From IMG/VR virus record IMGVR_UViG_2609459803_000009: a stretch of 7,296 nt of DNA, one strand, 5' to 3'. Source of the stretch: a virus (Duplodnaviria; Heunggongvirae; Uroviricota; Caudoviricetes). This document shows positions 1-7,296 of the stretch, one piece after another; position 1 is the first letter of the stretch, and the number at the start of each line of letters is the position of its first letter. The position numbers and the translations under genes were made by a program. Below the pieces are notes generated by a model. It saw only the letters and a program-made list of their open reading frames with translations. It was not told the origin of the DNA and made no database searches.

Positions 1-1170
1 TCACTCCTCATTTTCTTCTGAGCTGTACTCCACATCGGAGAGTTTAACCTCAAGCTCTAAGCCCGTCGTGAAACCGTTATTATTGAGGTTGTGGGTCACC
101 TTGCTGATTAACCATGCCTGCTCGTCTATGACGCGCTTAAAGCCTGACACGCGTACAGGCGTCTCAGGAAATAAATCCGCTCGCCCTAGCGCCAGTGTGA
201 TTGAAAACTCCGCAACGCCTCGCTGCAGTTTATCCCACTTAGCCTGAGCGGCGCGCATTGCCTGTGCCTTTGAGGCATAGACCGTCGTCAGCGCCAGCAC
301 GTTATCGGCTTCACCGGCCATGTACTCACCCTCACGTGCTTCCTGTTCTTTTTTGACCTTTGTCTTTTTGCTGACCGGCTTTGCTTTTGGGTGTTCCAGT
401 GCGCGCAGGTGCTTCTCTTTTGGCTTGCGTTTCAGCGTTACTTTCTGCTTTTGTGGCTTCGGGTCTTTGGTGTGCAACCATTTAGCAGTGACGCCGGTAT
501 AAGCCCCACGGTCGGCAATGGCAAACTGATGACGGTCACCATCACTGCGGGTCAGCGTCATTTGCGGGACGGGTTTGCCGCTGGCCGTCATCGCACTACC
601 GGCTTTCAGAAACAACAGTTTCCCTGCCTTCACCGATACCGTTGCCCCGTTGCGGTCAGCCAGTCGACTCAAAAATACCGCGTCGGATTCCTGCGACTGG
701 TCGATATGCGGTACCGGGATTTTTTTCAGCGATTCCGCAATGTTGGCCGTCAGTTTGTTGCGCTTTGCGATGGTACTGACCAGTTCGCCGATGGTGGTGT
801 CGTGCCATGACTCTTCACGCCTGGAATTTAGCGTGCCGCGAAAGTCCGCGCTGCGCGCCCGGATGGTCAGGGTATCAGGAGCCCCCCGGTGCTCAATCTC
901 ATCGACCGTAAAATCCCCCTTATTCAGCAGCGCCGAACCCTGCCAGCCAAGCCACAACGTCAGCACTGCCCCGCGCAGGGGTAACTCGACTTTCCCATCG
1001 GTGTCATCGAGCTCAATGTCGAGCTGGTCAGCTTCAAAGCCCCTATTGTCCGTCATGGTGAGAGAAATCAGCCGGTCGCTGAAGTTGCTGGTAATGTCCT
1101 GACTGTTCAGCGTCAGCATAAAAGCCGGTGCAAGGCTGGCACCGGCGTCAATTGCCATCCCCGTTATCAT
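1..1170 (-). CDS. D: P2-type late tail protein D (gpD, baseplate/tail-hub family)
   Basis: 389-aa minus-strand ORF with ATG at 1170-1168 and stop at the window edge (3-1). The translation has the conserved gpD character (RGFEADQLDIELDD, GDFTVDEIEHRGAPD, RSADFRGTLNSRRE, GAYTGVTAKWLH, EGEYMAGEADN) and an internal Lys/Pro-rich stretch. It is last in the conserved FI-FII-E-T-U-D order, and its ATG overlaps the U stop (ATGA). Confidence 0.9.
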   Translation of the reverse strand: MITGMAIDAGASLAPAFMLTLNSQDITSNFSDRLISLTMTDNRGFEADQLDIELDDTDGKVELPLRGAVLTLWLGWQGSALLNKGDFTVDEIEHRGAPDTLTIRARSADFRGTLNSRREESWHDTTIGELVSTIAKRNKLTANIAESLKKIPVPHIDQSQESDAVFLSRLADRNGATVSVKAGKLLFLKAGSAMTASGKPVPQMTLTRSDGDRHQFAIADRGAYTGVTAKWLHTKDPKPQKQKVTLKRKPKEKHLRALEHPKAKPVSKKTKVKKEQEAREGEYMAGEADNVLALTTVYASKAQAMRAAQAKWDKLQRGVAEFSITLALGRADLFPETPVRVSGFKRVIDEQAWLISKVTHNLNNNGFTTGLELEVKLSDVEYSSEENEE

Positions 1171-1652
1171 GCAGTGAAACCTCCGGGCATACCCTGCAGT
1201 TTATCTGTCAAATTACCGGCAGAGCCGAGAAGCTCACTGGCCTGTTTATTCAGGTCACCAAACATCTCTGTCAGCGATTCATCAACCCGTTTTAGCGAAA
1301 GCGTGAAATCAATCTTTCTGGCCGCACCATCACTGAAAAACTCGGTGCGTGTAGTCGATACTTTATCGACGATATACATCCCGAGGATATTTCCGGTTCC
1401 CTCTATCAACGGCCACGCTCTGCCTTCATTGGCCATCACCTCTACAGCCTTTAGTGAGATCCAACCGCCAGTGATAGCGGGGTATAGCGTACCAGCAAGC
1501 TGTATCGAGGTTTCCCCCTCGCCAAGAAACTGATAGGCAGGTGGTTTACCCACCCGGTCATTGGACACCCAGCGATAATCTTTCGAATGCTGCATCGACT
1601 GGTAAGGCAGGGTGCGAAGTTCAAACACAAACATTCCGAGAGCAAGCATCAT
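1167..1652 (-). CDS. U: P2-type tail protein U (gpU, tail completion/terminator-like)
   Basis: 161-aa ORF starting ATGATG at 1652, with a strong Shine-Dalgarno (GAGGGGG) about 8 nt upstream and lying 13 nt after the T stop. Position between T and D and a size of about 160 aa match P2 gpU. The stop TGA (1169-1167) overlaps the D start. Confidence 0.85.
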   Translation of the reverse strand: MMLALGMFVFELRTLPYQSMQHSKDYRWVSNDRVGKPPAYQFLGEGETSIQLAGTLYPAITGGWISLKAVEVMANEGRAWPLIEGTGNILGMYIVDKVSTTRTEFFSDGAARKIDFTLSLKRVDESLTEMFGDLNKQASELLGSAGNLTDKLQGMPGGFTA

Positions 1653-1665
1653 CGTTTAATCCCCC

Positions 1666-4110
1666 TCAATAGTCGTGGGTCATGTTGGCACGCTGGCGGG
1701 CGCGTTTATCGCGCTCAATCTGTTCGAGCGTGTCGCGTAGTTGTCTGTCAAGCTGATGCCCCGGCGCAACACCTCCCGGCAGATTGATGTTGTATTCGCT
1801 TTTGCTCTGGTCAATGTAAGAGCGCCCCGCCGGTGCGGTAACTGGCTGATAAGCCTGATAGCCGCCATATGTGCTGGTTGCCGGGATGTAGGAATTACCC
1901 TGTGTGGCGGCATTGGTTTTGGCGGCGGTCTGGTCGAGGCTGTCCGACTCTTTGTTGATGATGCCGAGCTTTTCGAGAAGCCAGTCGACACCGCTGCGCA
2001 GCTTGTTAAAAACATTGAGCGGAGCCATCAAGGCAGAGGCCAGTGCCTGACCAAATATGACGCCGACATTTTTGCAGCTATCAAGCGTTTCCTGCGTGGC
2101 CTTAACCGGTGCTATCAGGTCTTTAAACCACTGCCAGACGCCGCGCAGTTTCTCGCCGAGACCATCAAAAATGGGAGCCAGTGGAGCGAACATTTCCCCG
2201 ACTGGGGCAAAGGCACTCATGATGCCCTCAATCACTCCCGAGAAAAATGCGCTGATGGGCTCCCAATATTTACGGATGAGTAGCGCCCCCGCCACAATCG
2301 CCGCACCGACGGCCACTATCGGCCAGGTAATCGCACCGAGCGCTGTCGCAATGGCACTACCGACGACAGTAAAGACCGTACCCAGCACGCCAGCAGCGGC
2401 GATAATGGCATTAATTCCCATGACAACCGGCCACGCAACGAGACCAATGCCGCCGATGATACCAATCAGCGCCAGCGCACCACCGGCAATAATCCCGATA
2501 GTTGTCGTCAGCCCTTTGTTTTTCTGGATCCAGCCGTCGAGCTTCAACACGTATTGTGTGGCGGTTTGGGTGAGTTTGCGCAGCGAGCCCTCTTGCTGGT
2601 CAAAAAGGTCGGTACCGACAGCCTCATAAGCAGACTGGAACTCTTTAAAATCACCGCCGAGGTTGTCCTGCATAATTTTAACAAGCTCTGCGGTTTTTCC
2701 GTCTGAGGCTTTCAGGGTGGAGGTTAGCTGGTCAAGTTTGCCGGTTGAGGCGGCAGTCATGAGCACTGCCGCCGCCGAACTGGCTTCCTCACCGAATATC
2801 GTTTTCATGTATTCGGCTTGTTGACCGGTGCCGAGATTGTTACGCTCAAAACTGGCCTGCATTTCCTTGAGGATGGTAAAAATCGGGCGCGTGTTGCCTT
2901 TACTGTCGGAAGTTTTGACACCCAGCTCCTTAAGCGCATCCCACGCTTTACCGGTCGGAGCCTGCAGGCGGCTTAAAACCGCACGGCTCCCGGTGCCGGC
3001 CATCGAGCCGGTGATTTTGGCGTCATGCAGGGCGCCCACCATTGCGGCAGTTTCTTCAATGCTGACACCGGCATTTTTCGCCACCGGCGCGGCGTATGTC
3101 AGCGCATCGCTCAGCCCGTCGAAATCGGCAGCAGTTTTATTCATCACCGTCGACAGAACGTCGCCAATGTGCGCCACCTTGTCATTGGAAAGCTGAAACG
3201 CAGAGCGCATCCCCATCAGTAATGCGGCGTTTTCTTCCATCGTGCGACGGTTGGCAAGCGCCATATTGAGGGTGACCGGTGTCGTCGCCTGAATGGCTGC
3301 CGCATCGCCACCCCCTTTGGCGATAATAATCTGCGCACTGGCTGCATCATCAGCAGAAGCGGCTGTATTGTCACCGAGCTGGCGTGCCTGTTTGCGTAGC
3401 GCCTCCATTTCTGGTGACTGCTTATCGACCCCGAGCACAGCCTGCAGCTCGGAGTTTTTTTGCGCAAAGTCATAACCGGGCATCAGCAATTTAACCCCGG
3501 CCATCGTTCCCGCTGTCGCAATACCGACCCCGGCAGCACCTGCAGCGGCCATGTTACCGGCAAGTTCCTTACCCGATTTATATCGCTCTTTCACTCGGTT
3601 TAGGTGCGCCTGCTGTGCGCTGACCTTCGCCAATGCTTCGCGCTGCCGGTTGAGCTGCGCCGTCGTCTCGCTGATGCGTGTTTTAAGCCCCCGCTCATCG
3701 TTTGCCAGATTGCGGGTATTGATACCGGCGGCACCCAGCTCGCGTTGCTGGCGTTTAACCGACTCGGTGAGGCTGTTGTATTTAACCTGCAGCCCCTCGG
3801 CGGCACGTTTTGCGGATTCGAGCACCTGTGCCTGCGCTCGCGTCGGGCGCTCAGTATTTTTGAATTGCGTGGCAAGCGCTTCAGCCTCGCGCTTTGCCTT
3901 CTCCAGCGACTGGCCGGTTACGGCCAGTTGAGCGCTGGTTTTGCGAAAGCCGTCGATTTTCGCGGCCTGCCCGTTCAGGTCACGCAGCCCTTTTTGTGTG
4001 TCGCGAATATCGCCCGACAGGGTTTTACTCGCGGTCTGGATGGATTTAAGCGGTCGGGTCGCCTGGTCGACCGCTTTCAGCAAAACCTCAAGTCTCAGGT
4101 TATTACTCAT
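1666..4110 (-). CDS. T: Tail tape measure protein (gpT)
   Basis: 814-aa ORF. The N-terminal third is charged and coiled-coil-like (repeated Q/R/E/K/A heptad-like runs). A long Gly/Ala/Ile-rich hydrophobic block sits at about residues 534-612, typical of tape-measure proteins. It lies directly downstream of the E/E' frameshift pair, and its ATG (4110-4108) overlaps the E' stop. Confidence 0.92.
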   Translation of the reverse strand: MSNNLRLEVLLKAVDQATRPLKSIQTASKTLSGDIRDTQKGLRDLNGQAAKIDGFRKTSAQLAVTGQSLEKAKREAEALATQFKNTERPTRAQAQVLESAKRAAEGLQVKYNSLTESVKRQQRELGAAGINTRNLANDERGLKTRISETTAQLNRQREALAKVSAQQAHLNRVKERYKSGKELAGNMAAAGAAGVGIATAGTMAGVKLLMPGYDFAQKNSELQAVLGVDKQSPEMEALRKQARQLGDNTAASADDAASAQIIIAKGGGDAAAIQATTPVTLNMALANRRTMEENAALLMGMRSAFQLSNDKVAHIGDVLSTVMNKTAADFDGLSDALTYAAPVAKNAGVSIEETAAMVGALHDAKITGSMAGTGSRAVLSRLQAPTGKAWDALKELGVKTSDSKGNTRPIFTILKEMQASFERNNLGTGQQAEYMKTIFGEEASSAAAVLMTAASTGKLDQLTSTLKASDGKTAELVKIMQDNLGGDFKEFQSAYEAVGTDLFDQQEGSLRKLTQTATQYVLKLDGWIQKNKGLTTTIGIIAGGALALIGIIGGIGLVAWPVVMGINAIIAAAGVLGTVFTVVGSAIATALGAITWPIVAVGAAIVAGALLIRKYWEPISAFFSGVIEGIMSAFAPVGEMFAPLAPIFDGLGEKLRGVWQWFKDLIAPVKATQETLDSCKNVGVIFGQALASALMAPLNVFNKLRSGVDWLLEKLGIINKESDSLDQTAAKTNAATQGNSYIPATSTYGGYQAYQPVTAPAGRSYIDQSKSEYNINLPGGVAPGHQLDRQLRDTLEQIERDKRARQRANMTHDY

Positions 4111-4590
4111 TGTGGTGTCCGCTACGCTGCAGCGCCTTTTCGCGCCATGTGATGAGCTCGGTCAGGCTCAGGGAATAGAGCTCTGATGGCGACCAGTGGA
4201 ATATCACTGCAATATCCGCCATCAGGTCATCGGTCGACAGGTCGGGCGGAAAATCTACTCCGCCGAAGCCGGTGACAAAAAACCAATCACCTTAGCGGCC
4301 AGCGAAAGCATATCGGGCAGGTTCATCGCGGTTAGCTCCTGCGTGGTGAGCGCGGGATAGGTCATGCGGGGCAGCACTTTAATCAGCGCATCGACCTCGG
4401 ACTGCGCCACCGCCGCCAGACTGACACCGCGCAGGGTACCGGCGTTCGGCTCAATCAGGGTGACTTTATCAATCGTCTGACCGGCGCGCTTAATCGGCTT
4501 GTCGAGGGTCACGACGTTCGGGTTTACGGTGTCAATTTCATTGCCAGCCGTATCAACAAATTCAGCGGTTTTACGTGGTGCTTTTGCCAT
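4103..4590 (-). CDS. E+E': Tail assembly chaperone E+E' (gpE+E'), made by a programmed -1 frameshift at 4282-4276
   Basis: Zero frame 4590 to 4279, then a -1 slip on T-TTT-TTG. The -1 frame stays open for 57 codons (VTGFGGVDFPPDLSTDDLMADIAVIFHWSPSELYSLSLTELITWREKALQRSGHHNE) and ends at TAA 4105-4103, overlapping the T start. The predicted product is about 162 aa. This is the canonical arrangement upstream of tape-measure genes. Confidence 0.8.
4255..4590 (-). CDS. E: Tail assembly chaperone E (gpE, unshifted product)
   Basis: 111-aa ORF with ATG at 4590-4588 and stop TAG at 4257-4255. It sits between FII and T, and the slippery heptamer lies 6 codons before its stop. Confidence 0.85.
   Translation of the reverse strand: MAKAPRKTAEFVDTAGNEIDTVNPNVVTLDKPIKRAGQTIDKVTLIEPNAGTLRGVSLAAVAQSEVDALIKVLPRMTYPALTTQELTAMNLPDMLSLAAKVIGFLSPASAE
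4276..4282 (-). promoter_or_regulatory. Slippery heptanucleotide T-TTT-TTG for -1 programmed ribosomal frameshifting (E to E')
   Basis: The plus strand shows AAAAAA at 4277-4282 plus C at 4276, which is TTTTTTG on the coding strand, in the frame GGT-TTT-TTG of gpE. The -1 frame downstream is open until it overlaps the T start. Confidence 0.8.
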
Positions 4591-4638
4591 GATGTTTTTC
4601 TCTGCTCTGAAAGGGGATTAATAACCGGCCAGCCATGC

Positions 4639-4648
4639 TGACCGGTCA
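4639..4648. repeat. Perfect 10-bp palindrome TGACCGGTCA in the FII-E intergenic spacer, within a larger imperfect dyad CCATGcTGACCGGTCATGG (4633-4651)
   Basis: Read directly from the sequence. It lies in the 63-bp untranslated gap between the FII stop (4654) and the E start (4590). Function is unknown. Confidence 0.5.
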
Positions 4649-4653
4649 TGGAA

Positions 4654-5172
4654 TTACAGCCCGATTGCGCGGCGGTGCTGTTCCAGACGGTCGACGCCGT
4701 TCACCTTCTCGACCATGTTGACGGTGTCGATTTCGATGACGTCGCTACCATCAATCGTCAGGCGGTAATAGGTGCAGACCGTCGACAGTTTGGTCGAGGT
4801 GTTTTCACCCTGCTTATTTTCGCCGCCGTCGATTTCTTTATGACGGCCACGCATGACCACCTCGACCGCGTTGATTTCGCCGGTGTCGTCGCGCTGGTAG
4901 GATCCAGCAAAACGCAGCGGCACAGCGTCAGCACCCGGCGCGGCGTACTGCGCCCACAGAGCCACATCAGGCTGGCCACCGACAGACCACTCGACGGTTA
5001 ACGCATCATCGTCGAGACCGAGGTCAATCGCCGCCGCGCCATTCATGCCGCCGCCGCGATAGTTTTCGAGTTTGCGGGTCAGCTTCGGCAGCGTCACGGA
5101 TTCAACAACGCCCATATAGCTAAGGCCGTCGTTAAACATGTTCAGATATTTGAGTTTGCGGGGTAGTGCCAT
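4654..5172 (-). CDS. FII: Major tail tube protein (gpFII)
   Basis: 172-aa ORF with ATG at 5172-5170 and stop TAA at 4656-4654. A Shine-Dalgarno AGGAG lies in the 15-bp gap after FI. Size and position immediately downstream of the sheath gene match P2 FII. Confidence 0.88.
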   Translation of the reverse strand: MALPRKLKYLNMFNDGLSYMGVVESVTLPKLTRKLENYRGGGMNGAAAIDLGLDDDALTVEWSVGGQPDVALWAQYAAPGADAVPLRFAGSYQRDDTGEINAVEVVMRGRHKEIDGGENKQGENTSTKLSTVCTYYRLTIDGSDVIEIDTVNMVEKVNGVDRLEQHRRAIGL

Positions 5173-5187
5173 GTTGTTTCAGGCTCC

Positions 5188-6366
5188 TTAGCTGTTGACC
5201 GATTCGGCCAGATTCACCAGATATTTATCGGTGATACGCTGGCGCAGGGTCAGGCTTTCCAGTGGTGGAACCGGCGTATAGTCGTAGTCGATATACAGTT
5301 TCCCGGCCTTGAGGGTTTCCTTGTCATTCGATTCCTCGTCGAACCAGCATTCACCGTCCACGATGTAGCCATTTGATTTCAGCTCGCGGAATTTGGCATT
5401 AATGCCGTCGACAATGTCACGGATGAGCGATGCGGTAATGGGCTTATCGACCGCCCACATGTGAGCCTCGGCCATCGTGTCGGCCAGCACCTGCGCGGTG
5501 CGGGTGTAGTTCTCAAACAGGAAAAGCGGGTCATCAGAGCAGGTGCGGTTACCCCAAAAGCGGAAACCATCTTTGCGCACCAGCGTCGTGACCCCGGCCT
5601 CGTTGAGCAGGTCAGCATCGGTACCAGATGCCTGCAAATCCCAAAACACTGAGGCGCTGATGCCGGTGACACCCTGCACGCCGACGTTAGACAGGGTTTT
5701 ATGCCAGCCGACGGTCTGGTCGATGTAGGCGCGCAGGCCGAGTGCGCGCGCAGTGGCGTAGGCTGTTGCAGTGGCGTTCGCGGTGGTGTCCCATGCGAGG
5801 AAATCAGGCCAGATAAGCATCAGTTCGCGCTGGCTGAAATTCTCGCGATAGGCCATCGCCTCGGAAATAGTCTTACAGCCCCATGCACTGACATAGCCAA
5901 AGGCGCGCAGGCTGATACAGACCGACGCAAGTGCGACTGCGACCTCTTTGGTATCGAGCCCCGGCACGCCGAGAATGCGCGGCTTAACGCCGGTGACCGC
6001 TTCGGCAGTCAACAGCGCCTTGATACCGGTGTATTTACCGTTCTCATCCGTGCCGCCGATGATATTTGAAATGGTCTGCGCTTCCGCGTCTTCTCCGGTA
6101 CCTTCGGCAACACGCACGACAACGGTGACGGGCTTTGACTGGTCGGCGATGGCCTGCAGGGAGGCAGACAGCGTGCCTTTTTTACCGGCTTTCGCAATGG
6201 CGCTCTGCACATTGGTAATCAGTACCGGCTCGTTGAGGGGGAATGTCGCGGCATCCGCATCGCTGGCCGTGCAGACCATGCCGACAATTGCGGTTGCAAC
6301 AGTGGAAATGACGCGGGTGCCGTCGTTAATCTCAAGCACCTGCACGCCGTGGTGAAAATCACTCAT
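5188..6366 (-). CDS. FI: Contractile tail sheath protein (gpFI)
   Basis: The open frame runs 6393 to 5188 (401 codons from a TTG). The ATG at 6366-6364 (MSDFHHGVQVLEINDGTR...) has a GGAG Shine-Dalgarno about 9 nt upstream and matches the N-terminus I remember for P2 FI (MSDYHHGVQVLEIN), giving about 392 aa. The protein has a sheath-like size and conserved blocks (FRFWGNRTCSDDPLFLFENYTRTAQ, KLYIDYDYTPVPPLE). Confidence 0.9.
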   Translation of the reverse strand: MSDFHHGVQVLEINDGTRVISTVATAIVGMVCTASDADAATFPLNEPVLITNVQSAIAKAGKKGTLSASLQAIADQSKPVTVVVRVAEGTGEDAEAQTISNIIGGTDENGKYTGIKALLTAEAVTGVKPRILGVPGLDTKEVAVALASVCISLRAFGYVSAWGCKTISEAMAYRENFSQRELMLIWPDFLAWDTTANATATAYATARALGLRAYIDQTVGWHKTLSNVGVQGVTGISASVFWDLQASGTDADLLNEAGVTTLVRKDGFRFWGNRTCSDDPLFLFENYTRTAQVLADTMAEAHMWAVDKPITASLIRDIVDGINAKFRELKSNGYIVDGECWFDEESNDKETLKAGKLYIDYDYTPVPPLESLTLRQRITDKYLVNLAESVNS

Positions 6367-6393
6367 CCGGTTAACTCCGTGGTTAGTGGGCAA

Positions 6394-6464
6394 GTGTTAT
6401 TGTCCTGGCTGGTCTGTTGAGGGGCTATTTGTCAGTGTTGGGCGATGTCTGACACATTGAGACA
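6394..6464 (-). promoter_or_regulatory. Candidate late (activator-dependent) promoter region for the FI operon, with overlapping dyads TGTCAG-N13-CTGACA (6430-6454) and TGTCT-N9-AGACA (6446-6464)
   Basis: This is the only non-coding DNA upstream of FI. The dyad elements contain TGT...ACA half-sites resembling the P2 Ogr/Delta-type late promoter element (TGT-N12-ACA near -55), but the spacing here is N13 and no clear -35 is seen. This is a positional and motif inference only. Confidence 0.3.
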
Positions 6465-6707
6465 TCAGCAACGGATGCGGGAAATTTTTTGTATAGCGTT
6501 GAGATACCCGAGGCGATCCAGTTTCCAGACCACAAGCGTATCGCCCTCTGACAAGGTTCTGAGTAACCTCTTTAGCCCCGGCCAGTCTGATGTTTTGCCG
6601 CTGATTTTATCTTCGAAAATCAGCTCACATCCTGCGCACTCCAGTTCATTTCGCTGTAATGCGGTGTTCTGGTCATTTGTTGATACACGTACATAACCGA
6701 TAAACAT
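6465..6707 (-). pseudogene. Truncated serine DNA invertase (Hin/Gin/Cin/Pin family), N-terminal stub only
   Basis: The 80-aa ORF reads MFIGYVRVSTNDQNTALQRNELECAGCELIFEDKISGKTSDWPGLKRLLRTLSEGDTLVVWKLDRLG, which carries the resolvase/invertase N-terminus with the catalytic-Ser motif YVRVSTNDQ. It then diverges into 13 unrelated codons (YLNAIQKISRIRC) and stops. A full-length enzyme is about 185-190 aa and would run into FI. The C-terminal helix-turn-helix and most of the catalytic domain are absent. Confidence 0.8.
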
Positions 6708-6761
6708 GAGAAATAACCCGGTAAAAAGTCGGGATCATGCCAGCTGAACGGAATATCTGCA

Positions 6762-6787
6762 TTTTCTAAAAGGTTGGTTTGGGAGAA
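6762..6787. other. Candidate invertase crossover site (hix/gix/cix-like 26-bp site): TTTTCTAAAAGG-TT-GGTTTGGGAGAA
   Basis: The right half GGTTTGGGAGAA resembles the GGTTTTNGATAA half-site of gix/hix as I recall it; the left half is degenerate. The site sits exactly where the start-less tail-fibre frame opens (after TAA at 6767-6769) and about 60 bp upstream of the invertase ATG, as in Mu and Salmonella Hin systems. Similarity was judged by eye. Confidence 0.35.
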
Positions 6788-7123
6788 TTATCTCTGGCTG
6801 GCACTGCATCGGGTGTCATTGGTCTGAATGGGTATGTAACGATTCCGTTAATTATTTCAGGTTCCCGGAGAACACTGATTATTCAGTGGGGGCAGGCGAG
6901 ATTTGGTGGGTCTGGTGGTGAAGATGCCGGATATCTTAATGATTTTCCTTTTGCCTTTCCGTCAGCATGTTATGGAATGATAGTTAGTCATGTGGGGCAT
7001 ACACCTTCAGGCGCAGGAATCCTGTCGGCTTCTGCAATTACATCAAATCAGTTCCGCGGTTTTTCAAGCATAGCGACTGCTGCAAACGCTGTATTAGGTC
7101 GTTATATCGCTATAGGGGTGTAA
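6770..7123 (+). CDS. Tail-fibre C-terminal (receptor-binding) variable segment, probably the alternative, currently uncoupled arm of an invertible segment
   Basis: The plus-strand frame is open from 6770 and stops at TAA 7121-7123. It has no ATG or convincing ribosome-binding site (the ORF track starts it at TTG 6779). It is oriented opposite to the late operon and is followed 1 nt later by a coupled tail-fibre assembly gene. The region is AT-rich. The product is Gly/Ser-rich, about 115 aa, as expected for a fibre tip domain. Confidence 0.5.
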   Translation, partial: KVGLGELSLAGTASGVIGLNGYVTIPLIISGSRRTLIIQWGQARFGGSGGEDAGYLNDFPFAFPSACYGMIVSHVGHTPSGAGILSASAITSNQFRGFSSIATAANAVLGRYIAIGV

Positions 7124-7124
7124 T

Positions 7125-7296
7125 ATGTTTTATAGTCCATCTTTAAACATTTTTGTGAATCCTGCACTTAAGGATGATTACATTAATGCAAATTCATGGC
7201 CAGATGATGCTCTGGCTGTCAGTGATGATGTTTATAATGAATTTGCAATCAATACGCCTCCAGATGACAAAATTCGTGTTGCAGGAAAAAATGGAT
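7125..7296 (+). CDS. Tail fibre assembly protein (Tfa/gpG-like chaperone), N-terminal 57 codons, truncated by the window end
   Basis: ATG at 7125-7127 with a Shine-Dalgarno AGGGG about 7 nt upstream, directly after the fibre-segment stop (TAATATG). The translation MFYSPSLNIFVNPALKDDYINANSWPDDALAVSDDVYNEFAINTPPDDKIRVAGKNG resembles the N-terminus I recall for the Tfa family (aromatic-Ser start, then SWP.DA...S...Y.E). It is below the ORF-track length cut-off, so it was found by reading the sequence. Confidence 0.6.
   Translation, partial: MFYSPSLNIFVNPALKDDYINANSWPDDALAVSDDVYNEFAINTPPDDKIRVAGKNG

Follow-up and report, generated by a model that had tools for sequence, protein, structure and literature searches.

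The locus described here raises the question of why the 5′ end of a serine DNA invertase gene should persist, beside an invertible tail-fibre segment, when the gene can no longer make an enzyme. The earlier note on this DNA, a stretch of 7296 nt that is referred to below as the window, proposed that the stub is retained because it carries the cis-acting, Fis-dependent recombinational enhancer. The results presented below support that proposal and none of them overturns it, the causal part of the claim being drawn from comparative evidence.

The DNA of the window is a tail module from a P2/186-like E. coli prophage, and the invertible segment that belongs to it is comparable to the G segment of Mu and the P segment of e14. 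The tail genes D, U, tape-measure, E, tube and sheath all lie on the minus strand, and positions 1–6787 are 100% identical to a prophage located beside rplS in E. coli EC6622; this identity ends at 6787. The tail sheath gene (P2 FI / 186 J; Pfam Phage_sheath_1, Phage_sheath_1C and Gp18_domIII_N) occupies 5188–6366 on the minus strand. Alignment to the 186 J gene places its start at the ATG at 6366, not at the TTG at 6393 that was chosen by the ORF tool, and a 1179-nt sheath coding sequence is annotated in the identical EC6622 prophage. A homologue of the phage 186 late promoter pJ maps to 6390–6427 (minus strand), with coordinates transferred from the 186 record via alignment, and would be expected to drive the sheath/tube/tape-measure operon from a predicted transcript start near 6390. 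The homologue of the pJ site for the 186 B protein, an Ogr-type late activator, lies at 6439–6458 (minus strand; the aligned protein_bind feature of 186) and by homology probably serves the same role. The invertible tail-fibre segment is positioned between the tail-fibre genes and the sheath gene. In sister prophages, where the full layout can be followed, the sheath gene is succeeded by the invertase gene, a crossover site and cassette 1 with its assembly gene, and then by an inverted assembly gene and cassette 2, the partner site inside the tail-fibre gene, and the baseplate genes.

The boundary of the segment in the window is a 26-bp crossover site of the pix/gix type, TTTTCTAAAAGG TT GGTTTGGGAGAA, at 6762–6787, with its centre at 6774/6775. 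The inversion end-points of two pairs of isolates considered below (EC12/EC15 and CH423/CH425) map to this same interval. An inverted partner site is found 1.54–1.87 kb away in 11 of 11 sister prophages examined, a distance that takes it beyond the window end. Inside the segment, a silent alternative C-terminal tail-fibre cassette occupies 6788–7123 on the plus strand (Pfam Gp53-like_C, E 9e-13); its reading frame enters via the crossover site (ORF 6779–7123), and it is 99% identical to the cassette of the sister prophage L003. The cassette is followed by the start of the matching tail-fibre assembly gene (7125–7296, plus strand), which is colinear with the annotated L003 gene and runs off the window end. 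A Pfam search with the 57-aa fragment of this assembly gene returned no match, and a tandem-repeat scan of 6700–7296 found nothing. One site and one silent cassette of the G/C/P-type structure are present in the window, the full structure being seen in the sister prophages.

Examination of the invertase gene itself showed that an ORF at 6465–6707 on the minus strand matches the Pfam Resolvase family (PF00239) over residues 3–67, corresponding to profile positions 2–76 of 145 (E 6.8e-20), and that the first 67 residues align gap-free with Gin, Cin, PinE, Hin and the intact sister invertase. The intact gene of L003 (594 nt) was taken as the reference for the lesion. Window positions 6507–7296 align to the first 200 nt of the L003 gene and to all of the DNA upstream of it, and colinearity ends at 6507. 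The 5′ remnant extends over 6507–6707 on the minus strand (codons 1–67, ATG at 6705–6707), so that the assignment of an invertase stub to 6510–6707 in the earlier note was essentially right. On the other side of the break, blastn aligned window positions 6302–6502 to L003 5001–5202, which comprises the last 78 nt of the gene and all downstream DNA. The lesion is accordingly a 315-bp internal deletion (L003 5203–5517) rather than a simple truncation. It removes codons 68 to about 172, and the break falls between 6506 and 6507 (junction at 6500–6513).

This anatomy corrects the supposition that the rest of the gene was lost, since about 110 nt of its 3′ end remains at 6397–6506 on the minus strand, as judged from blastn, translation and alignment. 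The 3′ remnant is out of frame (+1) and comprises the end of the helix-turn-helix region and the ‘...YTKNFP...’ tail. Moreover, it overlaps the pJ late promoter of the tail-sheath operon, and its survival can be attributed to this overlap with the promoter of an essential tail operon, with no need to appeal to inversion.

The stub contains neither a complete Resolvase catalytic domain nor helix E, as the limits of the profile match make plain, and the in-frame DNA-binding helix-turn-helix domain is also absent, with only its last few codons surviving in the other frame. Only half of the catalytic domain is left, and with helix E and the DNA-binding domain also lost the remnant cannot make an enzyme. 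PGAP calls the gene an incomplete or frameshifted pseudogene in sister genomes, and the stub carries replacements (A21E and R42W) at two positions on which all five of the intact genes under comparison agree, as would be expected for a pseudogene. The invertase 5′ untranslated and promoter region (6708–6761, minus strand) is colinear with the regions upstream of pinE, gin and the L003 gene; no match to the sigma-70 consensus was found in 6708–6761, and a promoter and terminator scan of 6300–6900 found nothing.

Does this remnant contain an enhancer? The P1 genome record (NC_005856) annotates the Cin enhancer at cin nt 19–90, and the homologous nt 19–90 of the stub correspond to window positions 6618–6689. 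The stub was compared with gin, cin and pinE taken from annotated records, with the intact sister gene, and with hin from a Salmonella contig. Over nt 19–90 its identity is highest with the sister gene (85%), stands at 82% with both cin and pinE, and falls to 72% with gin and 69% with hin, in keeping with the similarity to known invertase enhancers that the earlier note had asked after. For each of the five reference genes the identity over nt 19–90 exceeds that over nt 91–198, and this interval is the best-conserved part of the stub. The stub had also been said to cover ‘exactly’ the enhancer region; the enhancer does lie within it, but the fit is a loose one, as the stub measures 201 nt and the enhancer spans nt 19–90.

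The classical Fis consensus, (G/T)NNYRNN(A/T)NNYRNN(C/A), is matched at nt 23–37 and again at nt 71–85 in all six sequences, with the two centres exactly 48 bp apart, which is the arrangement that had been put forward as a check in the earlier note (a Fis-site pair with centres about 48 bp apart). In the window, core I, the crossover-proximal core (TATCAACAAATGACC), lies at 6671–6685 and core II, the crossover-distal core (GCGCAGGATGTGAGC), at 6623–6637, both on the minus strand. At core I the stub has exactly the 15 nucleotides that Mu gin and e14 pinE have there, and at core II it has exactly those of P1 cin. The positions used here fit the published description of the Hin enhancer, in which two 15-bp Fis cores have ATTTA and TAATG between them (PMC3798978). 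A Fis pair at 48 bp arises in 0.76% of shuffles of the 198-nt stub. The placement of the cores relative to the crossover site is likewise that of the family: the ATG lies 67 bp, the core I centre 96 bp and the core II centre 144 bp from the crossover centre. The same 67, 96 and 144 bp are found in gin and pinE, and the same Fis distances in the invertase stub of the EC958 prophage Phi4 (discussed below); the corresponding core distances in hin are 106 and 154 bp.

The 15-mer that the earlier note had picked out by eye as Fis-like (GCTGATTTTATCTTC, 6600–6614) is indeed present, but it corresponds to gene nt 94–108, lies just outside the enhancer and misfits the consensus. A crude Fis score (G at −7, C at +7, Y-R steps and an A/T-rich centre) ranks the true cores in the top 3.4% and 0.7% of window 15-mers and the 6600–6614 site in the top 1.8%. 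As this score fails to separate the true cores from the 6600–6614 site, the case for the enhancer rests on homology and geometry. Three further consensus matches spaced 48 bp apart, at 6975, 7023 and 7071, were judged to be due to chance, as two of the three score poorly.

Within the family the Fis cores are the most conserved nucleotides, being 83% invariant compared with 50–57% elsewhere. In intact genes, the cores have a coding role too, for the catalytic-site motif VSTNDQ and for CAGCE, and their conservation in a young pseudogene is for that reason expected in any case. Taken together, homology and geometry indicate that the 5′ remnant holds what appears to be a complete and correctly placed homologue of the Fis-dependent enhancer; Fis would be expected to bind to both cores, and inversion at this locus probably needs the enhancer.

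Whether the segment is still active could be judged from other prophages with the same lesion. The deletion junction was identified in 35 of 5426 complete E. coli genomes, and was matched exactly in six IMG/VR contigs as well as in further contigs of the survey described below. The carriers were sampled on four continents, from river water and from human, calf and pig hosts, and their tail genes differ from those of the window by 3–7%. In three near-clonal groups of carriers, the segment was found in both orientations. EC12 and EC15 are 100% identical over flanks of 7395 and 5158 nt and differ by inversion of a 1877-bp segment. An inversion of 1873 bp distinguishes CH423 and CH458 from the near-clonal CH425, and one of 1550 bp distinguishes strains 222 and 5283 from the near-clonal FDAARGOS_1280. 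Across the three groups the flanks are 99.6–100% identical, a segment of 1.55–1.88 kb is flipped exactly at the crossover sites, and the identity shared at the flip end-points amounts to only about 15 bp.

Because the deletion is common to all carriers and the flips separate clonal isolates, the flips postdate loss of the invertase; and because the resident invertase is dead and the segment is still flipping, the enzyme must come from elsewhere in the cell. Inversion must therefore be going on in prophages with this dead gene, catalysed in trans, which is the opposite of the outcome that the earlier note had named as refuting its idea, a failure to detect inversion even with an invertase in trans. 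An independent stub allele of 147 nt gives a parallel, in that two related contigs (L034 and L056) carry the segment in opposite orientations. The stub also occurs in a phage record, vB_EcoM-613R3, which is 100% identical to the prophage of strain 222 over the 7398 nt compared. As counted by blastn, the chromosomes of EC12, EC15 and the CH42x isolates contain one or two further places that are similar to the invertase region, and no second gin/pin-like place was detected at blastn sensitivity in the chromosome of the strain 222 group.

The fate of the enhancer in other damaged invertase genes was addressed by a survey anchored on the invertase-side half of the pin-type crossover site together with the start of the 5′ untranslated region, an anchor that is independent of the downstream sequence. 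The survey drew on IMG/VR and metagenome contigs and yielded 256 distinct sites, each with the next 760 nt available. An intact invertase ORF is present at 203 of these; a further 11 genes are full-length with a frameshift or stop, one has an IS insertion and two are relics. The remaining sites reduce to 18 different alleles that are truncated or have an internal deletion. The gene is retained as far as nt 95, 105, 112, 113, 115, 115, 121, 147 or 159 in the first nine of these and 184, 199, 202 (the allele of the window), 237, 237, 247, 267, 273 or 470 in the other nine.

All 18 alleles keep nt 1–95 or more, and so their truncations stop short of the enhancer. No breakpoint falls in nt 19–90, compared with nine in the equal-length interval nt 91–162 (one-sided binomial P 0.002), and seven are concentrated in one 27-nt window just past the enhancer, 5–31 nt from its edge (scan P 0.0017). 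Under a uniform model, the probability that 18 of 18 would spare the enhancer is 0.009. If the two enhancer-less relics (L165 and L258) are counted, the depletion is not significant (P 0.12). Since junction sequences differ among the alleles, and most stubs resemble some intact gene more than they resemble any other stub, these appear to be largely independent events. The partner crossover site is kept in nearly all of the alleles for which there is enough flanking sequence. Our literature search found no paper linking truncated invertases to enhancer retention, and this pattern of breakpoints across the family may be the one new result of the present analysis.

Several apparent exceptions were examined and set aside. 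One candidate enhancer-less allele (L276) turned out to be a gene that an IS interrupts at nt 12 and that resumes 2 kb further on. The two relics, L258 and L165, have no invertible segment and were not accepted as enhancer-less truncations of a switch. Other E. coli remnants that lack the first 62–74 nt are those of WP2-S18 (nt 63–201 and 300–373) and DETEC-C31 (nt 75–287), and at both of these loci no invertible segment is left. A count of places in E. coli genomes that match the 5′ 200 nt (9331) against those that match the deleted middle 316 nt (5307) was discarded, as the comparison is confounded by the better conservation of the 5′ part and by its matches to distant resolvases.

How far do these data distinguish retention of a working enhancer from a neutral outcome? 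One random deletion may have left 201 nt of 5′ sequence in which the enhancer is perhaps used and yet unselected, in a lineage too young for decay. Several features of the window allele taken by itself are compatible with this. The carriers all go back to one deletion event, with the same junction throughout; a 315-bp deletion placed at random between promoter and crossover site would leave the enhancer untouched in about 53% of cases; and no cis role is known for 111 nt of the 5′ remnant, beyond what the enhancer needs, or for about 48 nt of the 3′ remnant. The within-allele tests do not reach significance either. No variable site occurs in 6618–6689 among 12 carriers (about P 0.13, with some 10 independent variable positions in 394 nt), and the changes that only the stub shows, at positions invariant in the other genes, are few, with none in the Fis cores, one in the rest of the enhancer and six outside it. 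Invertase remnants without a 5′ end do exist, as WP2-S18 and DETEC-C31 demonstrate; however, the enhancer-less remnants are all at loci without an invertible segment, whereas every one of the 18 independent truncations beside a crossover site keeps the whole enhancer, seven of them ending almost at its edge. Moreover, the divergence of the carriers' tail genes and the spread of their hosts over four continents show that the allele is not very young. On this balance we consider a neutral relic to be rather unlikely.

A different kind of objection is that the stub is irrelevant to the flips, these being made by a recombinase independent of Fis and the enhancer, with the help of an enhancer elsewhere, or by homologous recombination of the inverted repeats. 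That blastn detected no second gin/pin-like chromosomal region in the strain 222 group could mean that the enzyme there is of another kind; PinQ is only 38% identical to PinE and yet inverts the e14 segment (PMC12529663), and enhancer-independent invertase mutants are known (PMC3798978). Against this, all of the end-points fall at the 26-bp sites, where the approximately 15 bp of shared identity is too short for efficient RecA recombination, and wild-type enzymes of the Hin/Gin/Cin family need the enhancer in cis (PMC3798978; likewise the title of Kahmann et al., 1985). Flips of this kind would also leave the avoidance of the enhancer by the breakpoints unexplained, and we regard them as improbable. 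Still less credible is retention of the stub for some other function, whether as a small protein of 80 aa (104 aa in a sub-allele) or as a promoter or terminator element for the neighbouring genes. An ORF with the native start codon does remain, and the 104-aa version is annotated ‘DNA invertase’ in vB_EcoM-613R3; but the frame varies among sub-alleles (by a 4-bp indel, and by a 1-bp deletion in other carriers), in line with the PGAP calls, and the encoded fragment has replacements at two invariant residues and neither helix E nor a DNA-binding domain. In addition, 6300–6900 contains no promoter-like or terminator-like match, and other stub alleles end at many different codons.

The reading that we prefer is that of a switch served in trans, in which the remnant retains a working enhancer, the segment still inverts, and deletions that remove the enhancer lock it; we put the probability of this at roughly two in three. 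The survivors on the 5′ side would then constitute the complete cis apparatus of the switch, comprising the crossover site (6762–6787), the spacer and the enhancer (6618–6689). An invertase encoded by another prophage or a plasmid would bind both crossover sites, and Fis, sitting on both cores of the orphan enhancer, would assemble the invertasome and activate strand exchange. In this way the phage would go on switching its tail-fibre tip, together with the assembly protein that matches it, between two forms. Any deletion that removed the enhancer would lock the segment, so that the lineages still switching would be those with an enhancer in the remnant, and the 3′ remnant would have been kept for the separate reason given above, its overlap with the late promoter. 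That selection is the cause of enhancer retention is suggested by the comparison across the family.

The locus is best regarded as a further case of the known Gin/Pin-type switch, here served in trans, and not as a new kind of element. Its architecture is very close to that of Mu Gin and the G segment, where the enhancer (sis) also lies inside the 5′ part of gin: the crossover site, the 67 bp to the start codon and the Fis cores at 96 and 144 bp all correspond, core I is identical, and the 72% identity over nt 19–90 was noted above. As in Mu, a segment with alternative tail-fibre tips and assembly genes adjoins the 5′ end of the gene. Unlike in Mu, the invertase here is dead as a result of the 315-bp deletion and the enzyme comes from elsewhere, and the element is a P2/186-like prophage. 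The P1 Cin system and its C segment share an identical core II, a core I that differs by one base, 82% identity over nt 19–90 and the same position of the enhancer within the gene. In P1, by contrast, Cin is intact, and it is the 3′ end of cin that abuts the segment, so that the enhancer is about 0.5 kb from cixL.

The e14 Pin system and its P segment in E. coli K-12 share with the window the segment-side half of the crossover site (TTCTCCCAAACC), the same geometry, 82% identity to pinE over nt 19–90 and tfa genes that are likewise arranged as an inverted pair; they differ in that pinE is intact and e14 is cryptic, whereas the stub described here is also present in a deposited phage genome. 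PinE, PinQ and PinR can each invert the e14 P segment, and deletion of the whole pinE ORF locks the segment even though pinQ and pinR remain (PMC12529663); the enhancer is not discussed by the authors. Locking of this kind is what loss of an enhancer in cis would predict, but the observation is ambiguous, as PinE may simply be the main enzyme.

The nearest precedent is the EC958 prophage Phi4, which has a truncated invertase and a segment seen in both orientations in PacBio reads, and for which the authors, who make no mention of an enhancer, inferred action in trans (Forde et al., 2014; PMC4134206). Inspection of that locus here showed that its 5′ stub of about 190 nt keeps both Fis cores in the same geometry. 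It nevertheless represents an independent event, as the gene is gin-like and belongs to a lambdoid prophage, and the lesion consists of a truncation and nonsense mutations with no internal deletion. A parallel for the trans activity is offered by the Fels-2 invertase Fin, which inverts the Salmonella H segment without Hin (Kutsukake et al., 2006, as cited in PMC3535392). According to that citation, an enzyme from a P2-like prophage acts there on a segment whose own invertase is absent; action in trans is what the two cases have in common. The Fin case differs in having been established by Salmonella genetics, in mutants of hin that keep the H-segment enhancer inside hin; going by the same citation, the direction is also reversed, the P2-like element being here the recipient of the trans action.

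Beyond this locus, the survey raises the possibility that invertase-less tail-fibre switches are a recurrent, selected state, in which phages repeatedly shed the gene at a cargo hotspot that lies between the tail-fibre and sheath genes, a stub of about 95–120 nt is kept for its enhancer, and the switch comes to rely on Pin-family enzymes from other prophages or plasmids of the host. The limit at nt 95 would on this view show how much of the enhancer is required in vivo, and the bias towards short stubs would reflect selection against catalytic leftovers. We advance this only tentatively and think it somewhat doubtful. The cluster of breakpoints at nt 95–121 could be a mechanistic hotspot, such as cargo insertion at a phage hotspot, instead of a boundary set by selection.

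Overall, stubs such as this one are labelled by annotation pipelines as remains of a dead recombinase. Should the stub work as an enhancer, the tail-fibre segment would still be a live host-range switch, dependent on co-resident prophages or plasmids. This would have a bearing on the prediction of phage host range, and on the reading of tail-fibre regions in long-read assemblies, where the orientation of the segment differs between clonal isolates. The truncations that stop at the enhancer edge would amount to a natural deletion series for a classic cis element, and the pattern across the family may provide a simple and testable example of selection on a non-coding function within a pseudogene.

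Among truncated pin-type invertase genes, seven independent alleles stop within a single 27-nt span just beyond the enhancer homologue (gene nt 19-90, window 6618-6689). The stubs in loci L361, L319, L247, L213, L200, L222 and L040 all end between gene nt 95 and 121, which is equivalent to 6587-6613 of the window. Moreover, the lengths of the surviving stubs are far below the prediction of a uniform model (KS P 9e-6), and only one stub is longer than 273 nt. The shortness of the stubs and the clustering of their end points past the enhancer may mark a selection edge or, alternatively, a mechanistic hotspot for truncation. At the other end of the gene, the invertase 3' end overlaps a homologue of pJ, the phage 186 late promoter of the sheath operon, together with its B/Ogr activator site (window 6390-6458), and this overlap limits how far deletions can reach towards the sheath gene. 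A sheath start at TTG 6393, as proposed in a mechanical ORF list, was rejected in favour of ATG 6366 on the basis of the annotation of identical prophages and alignment with phage 186.

Further invertase remnants in E. coli chromosomes (L019, L020 and L021) have genes of probable defence or toxin-antitoxin function immediately after them, encoding a DUF262 protein, a TIR-domain reverse transcriptase and RnlA/RnlB, which suggests that the invertase is truncated by cargo insertion at this position of the phage. Carriers of the 315-bp internal deletion can be sorted into sub-alleles at window 6577-6587, where they differ in a CCGG indel, in the loss of one base pair and in five substitutions crowded into 8 bp. 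These differences look like a small patch replacement. They also alter the frame: the ORF comes to 80 aa in one sub-allele and to 104 aa in the other.

The prophage in E. coli EC6622 was found by sequence comparison to be 100% identical to the window over positions 1-6787, that is, up to the last nucleotide of the crossover site (6762-6787), and window residues 6788-7296 have no counterpart in EC6622. Instead, the cassette of the SC455 prophage (L003) is 99% identical to window 6788-7296. SC455 carries a different prophage, with an intact invertase, which shares only about 80% identity with the window across the stub. The cassette was swapped precisely at the crossover site (6787/6788), and the lineage in which this happened has no invertase of its own. 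Loose Fis consensus matches within the tail-fibre cassette at 6975, 7023 and 7071, spaced 48 bp apart, were judged to be chance, given the poor scores of two of the three and the absence of a tandem repeat.

The orientation of the segment is also flipped among the related E. coli strains 222, 103, 5283 and FDAARGOS_1280 (L014, L022 and L023). At blastn sensitivity, no second region resembling the stub and crossover site was present on the chromosomes of these four strains, and the invertase acting in the strain 222 group may be encoded on a plasmid or be only distantly related to Pin. Among the IMG/VR and metagenome loci (for example L039, L045, L065, L095 and L103), contigs frequently break off in the 5' UTR of the invertase gene, no more than about 45-130 nt from the crossover site; assemblers produce such breaks when both orientations are present in one sample.

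In L276, an IMG/VR contig, the invertase gene is complete except for an IS21-family insertion at nt 12, which puts the enhancer about 2 kb from the crossover site. Two further IMG/VR contigs, L258 and L165, are relics. In each, the crossover site together with part of the invertase 5' UTR has been joined to other sequence: directly to an ogr-like gene in L258, with gpV on the other side, and to the constant part of a tail-fibre gene in L165. Aberrant site-specific recombination may have produced both. Phage 186 lacks an invertase, yet its record places a 'Mu-like inversion crossover site' within the tail-fibre gene (L017, 2461-2486). This site is probably the fossil of a lost switch.
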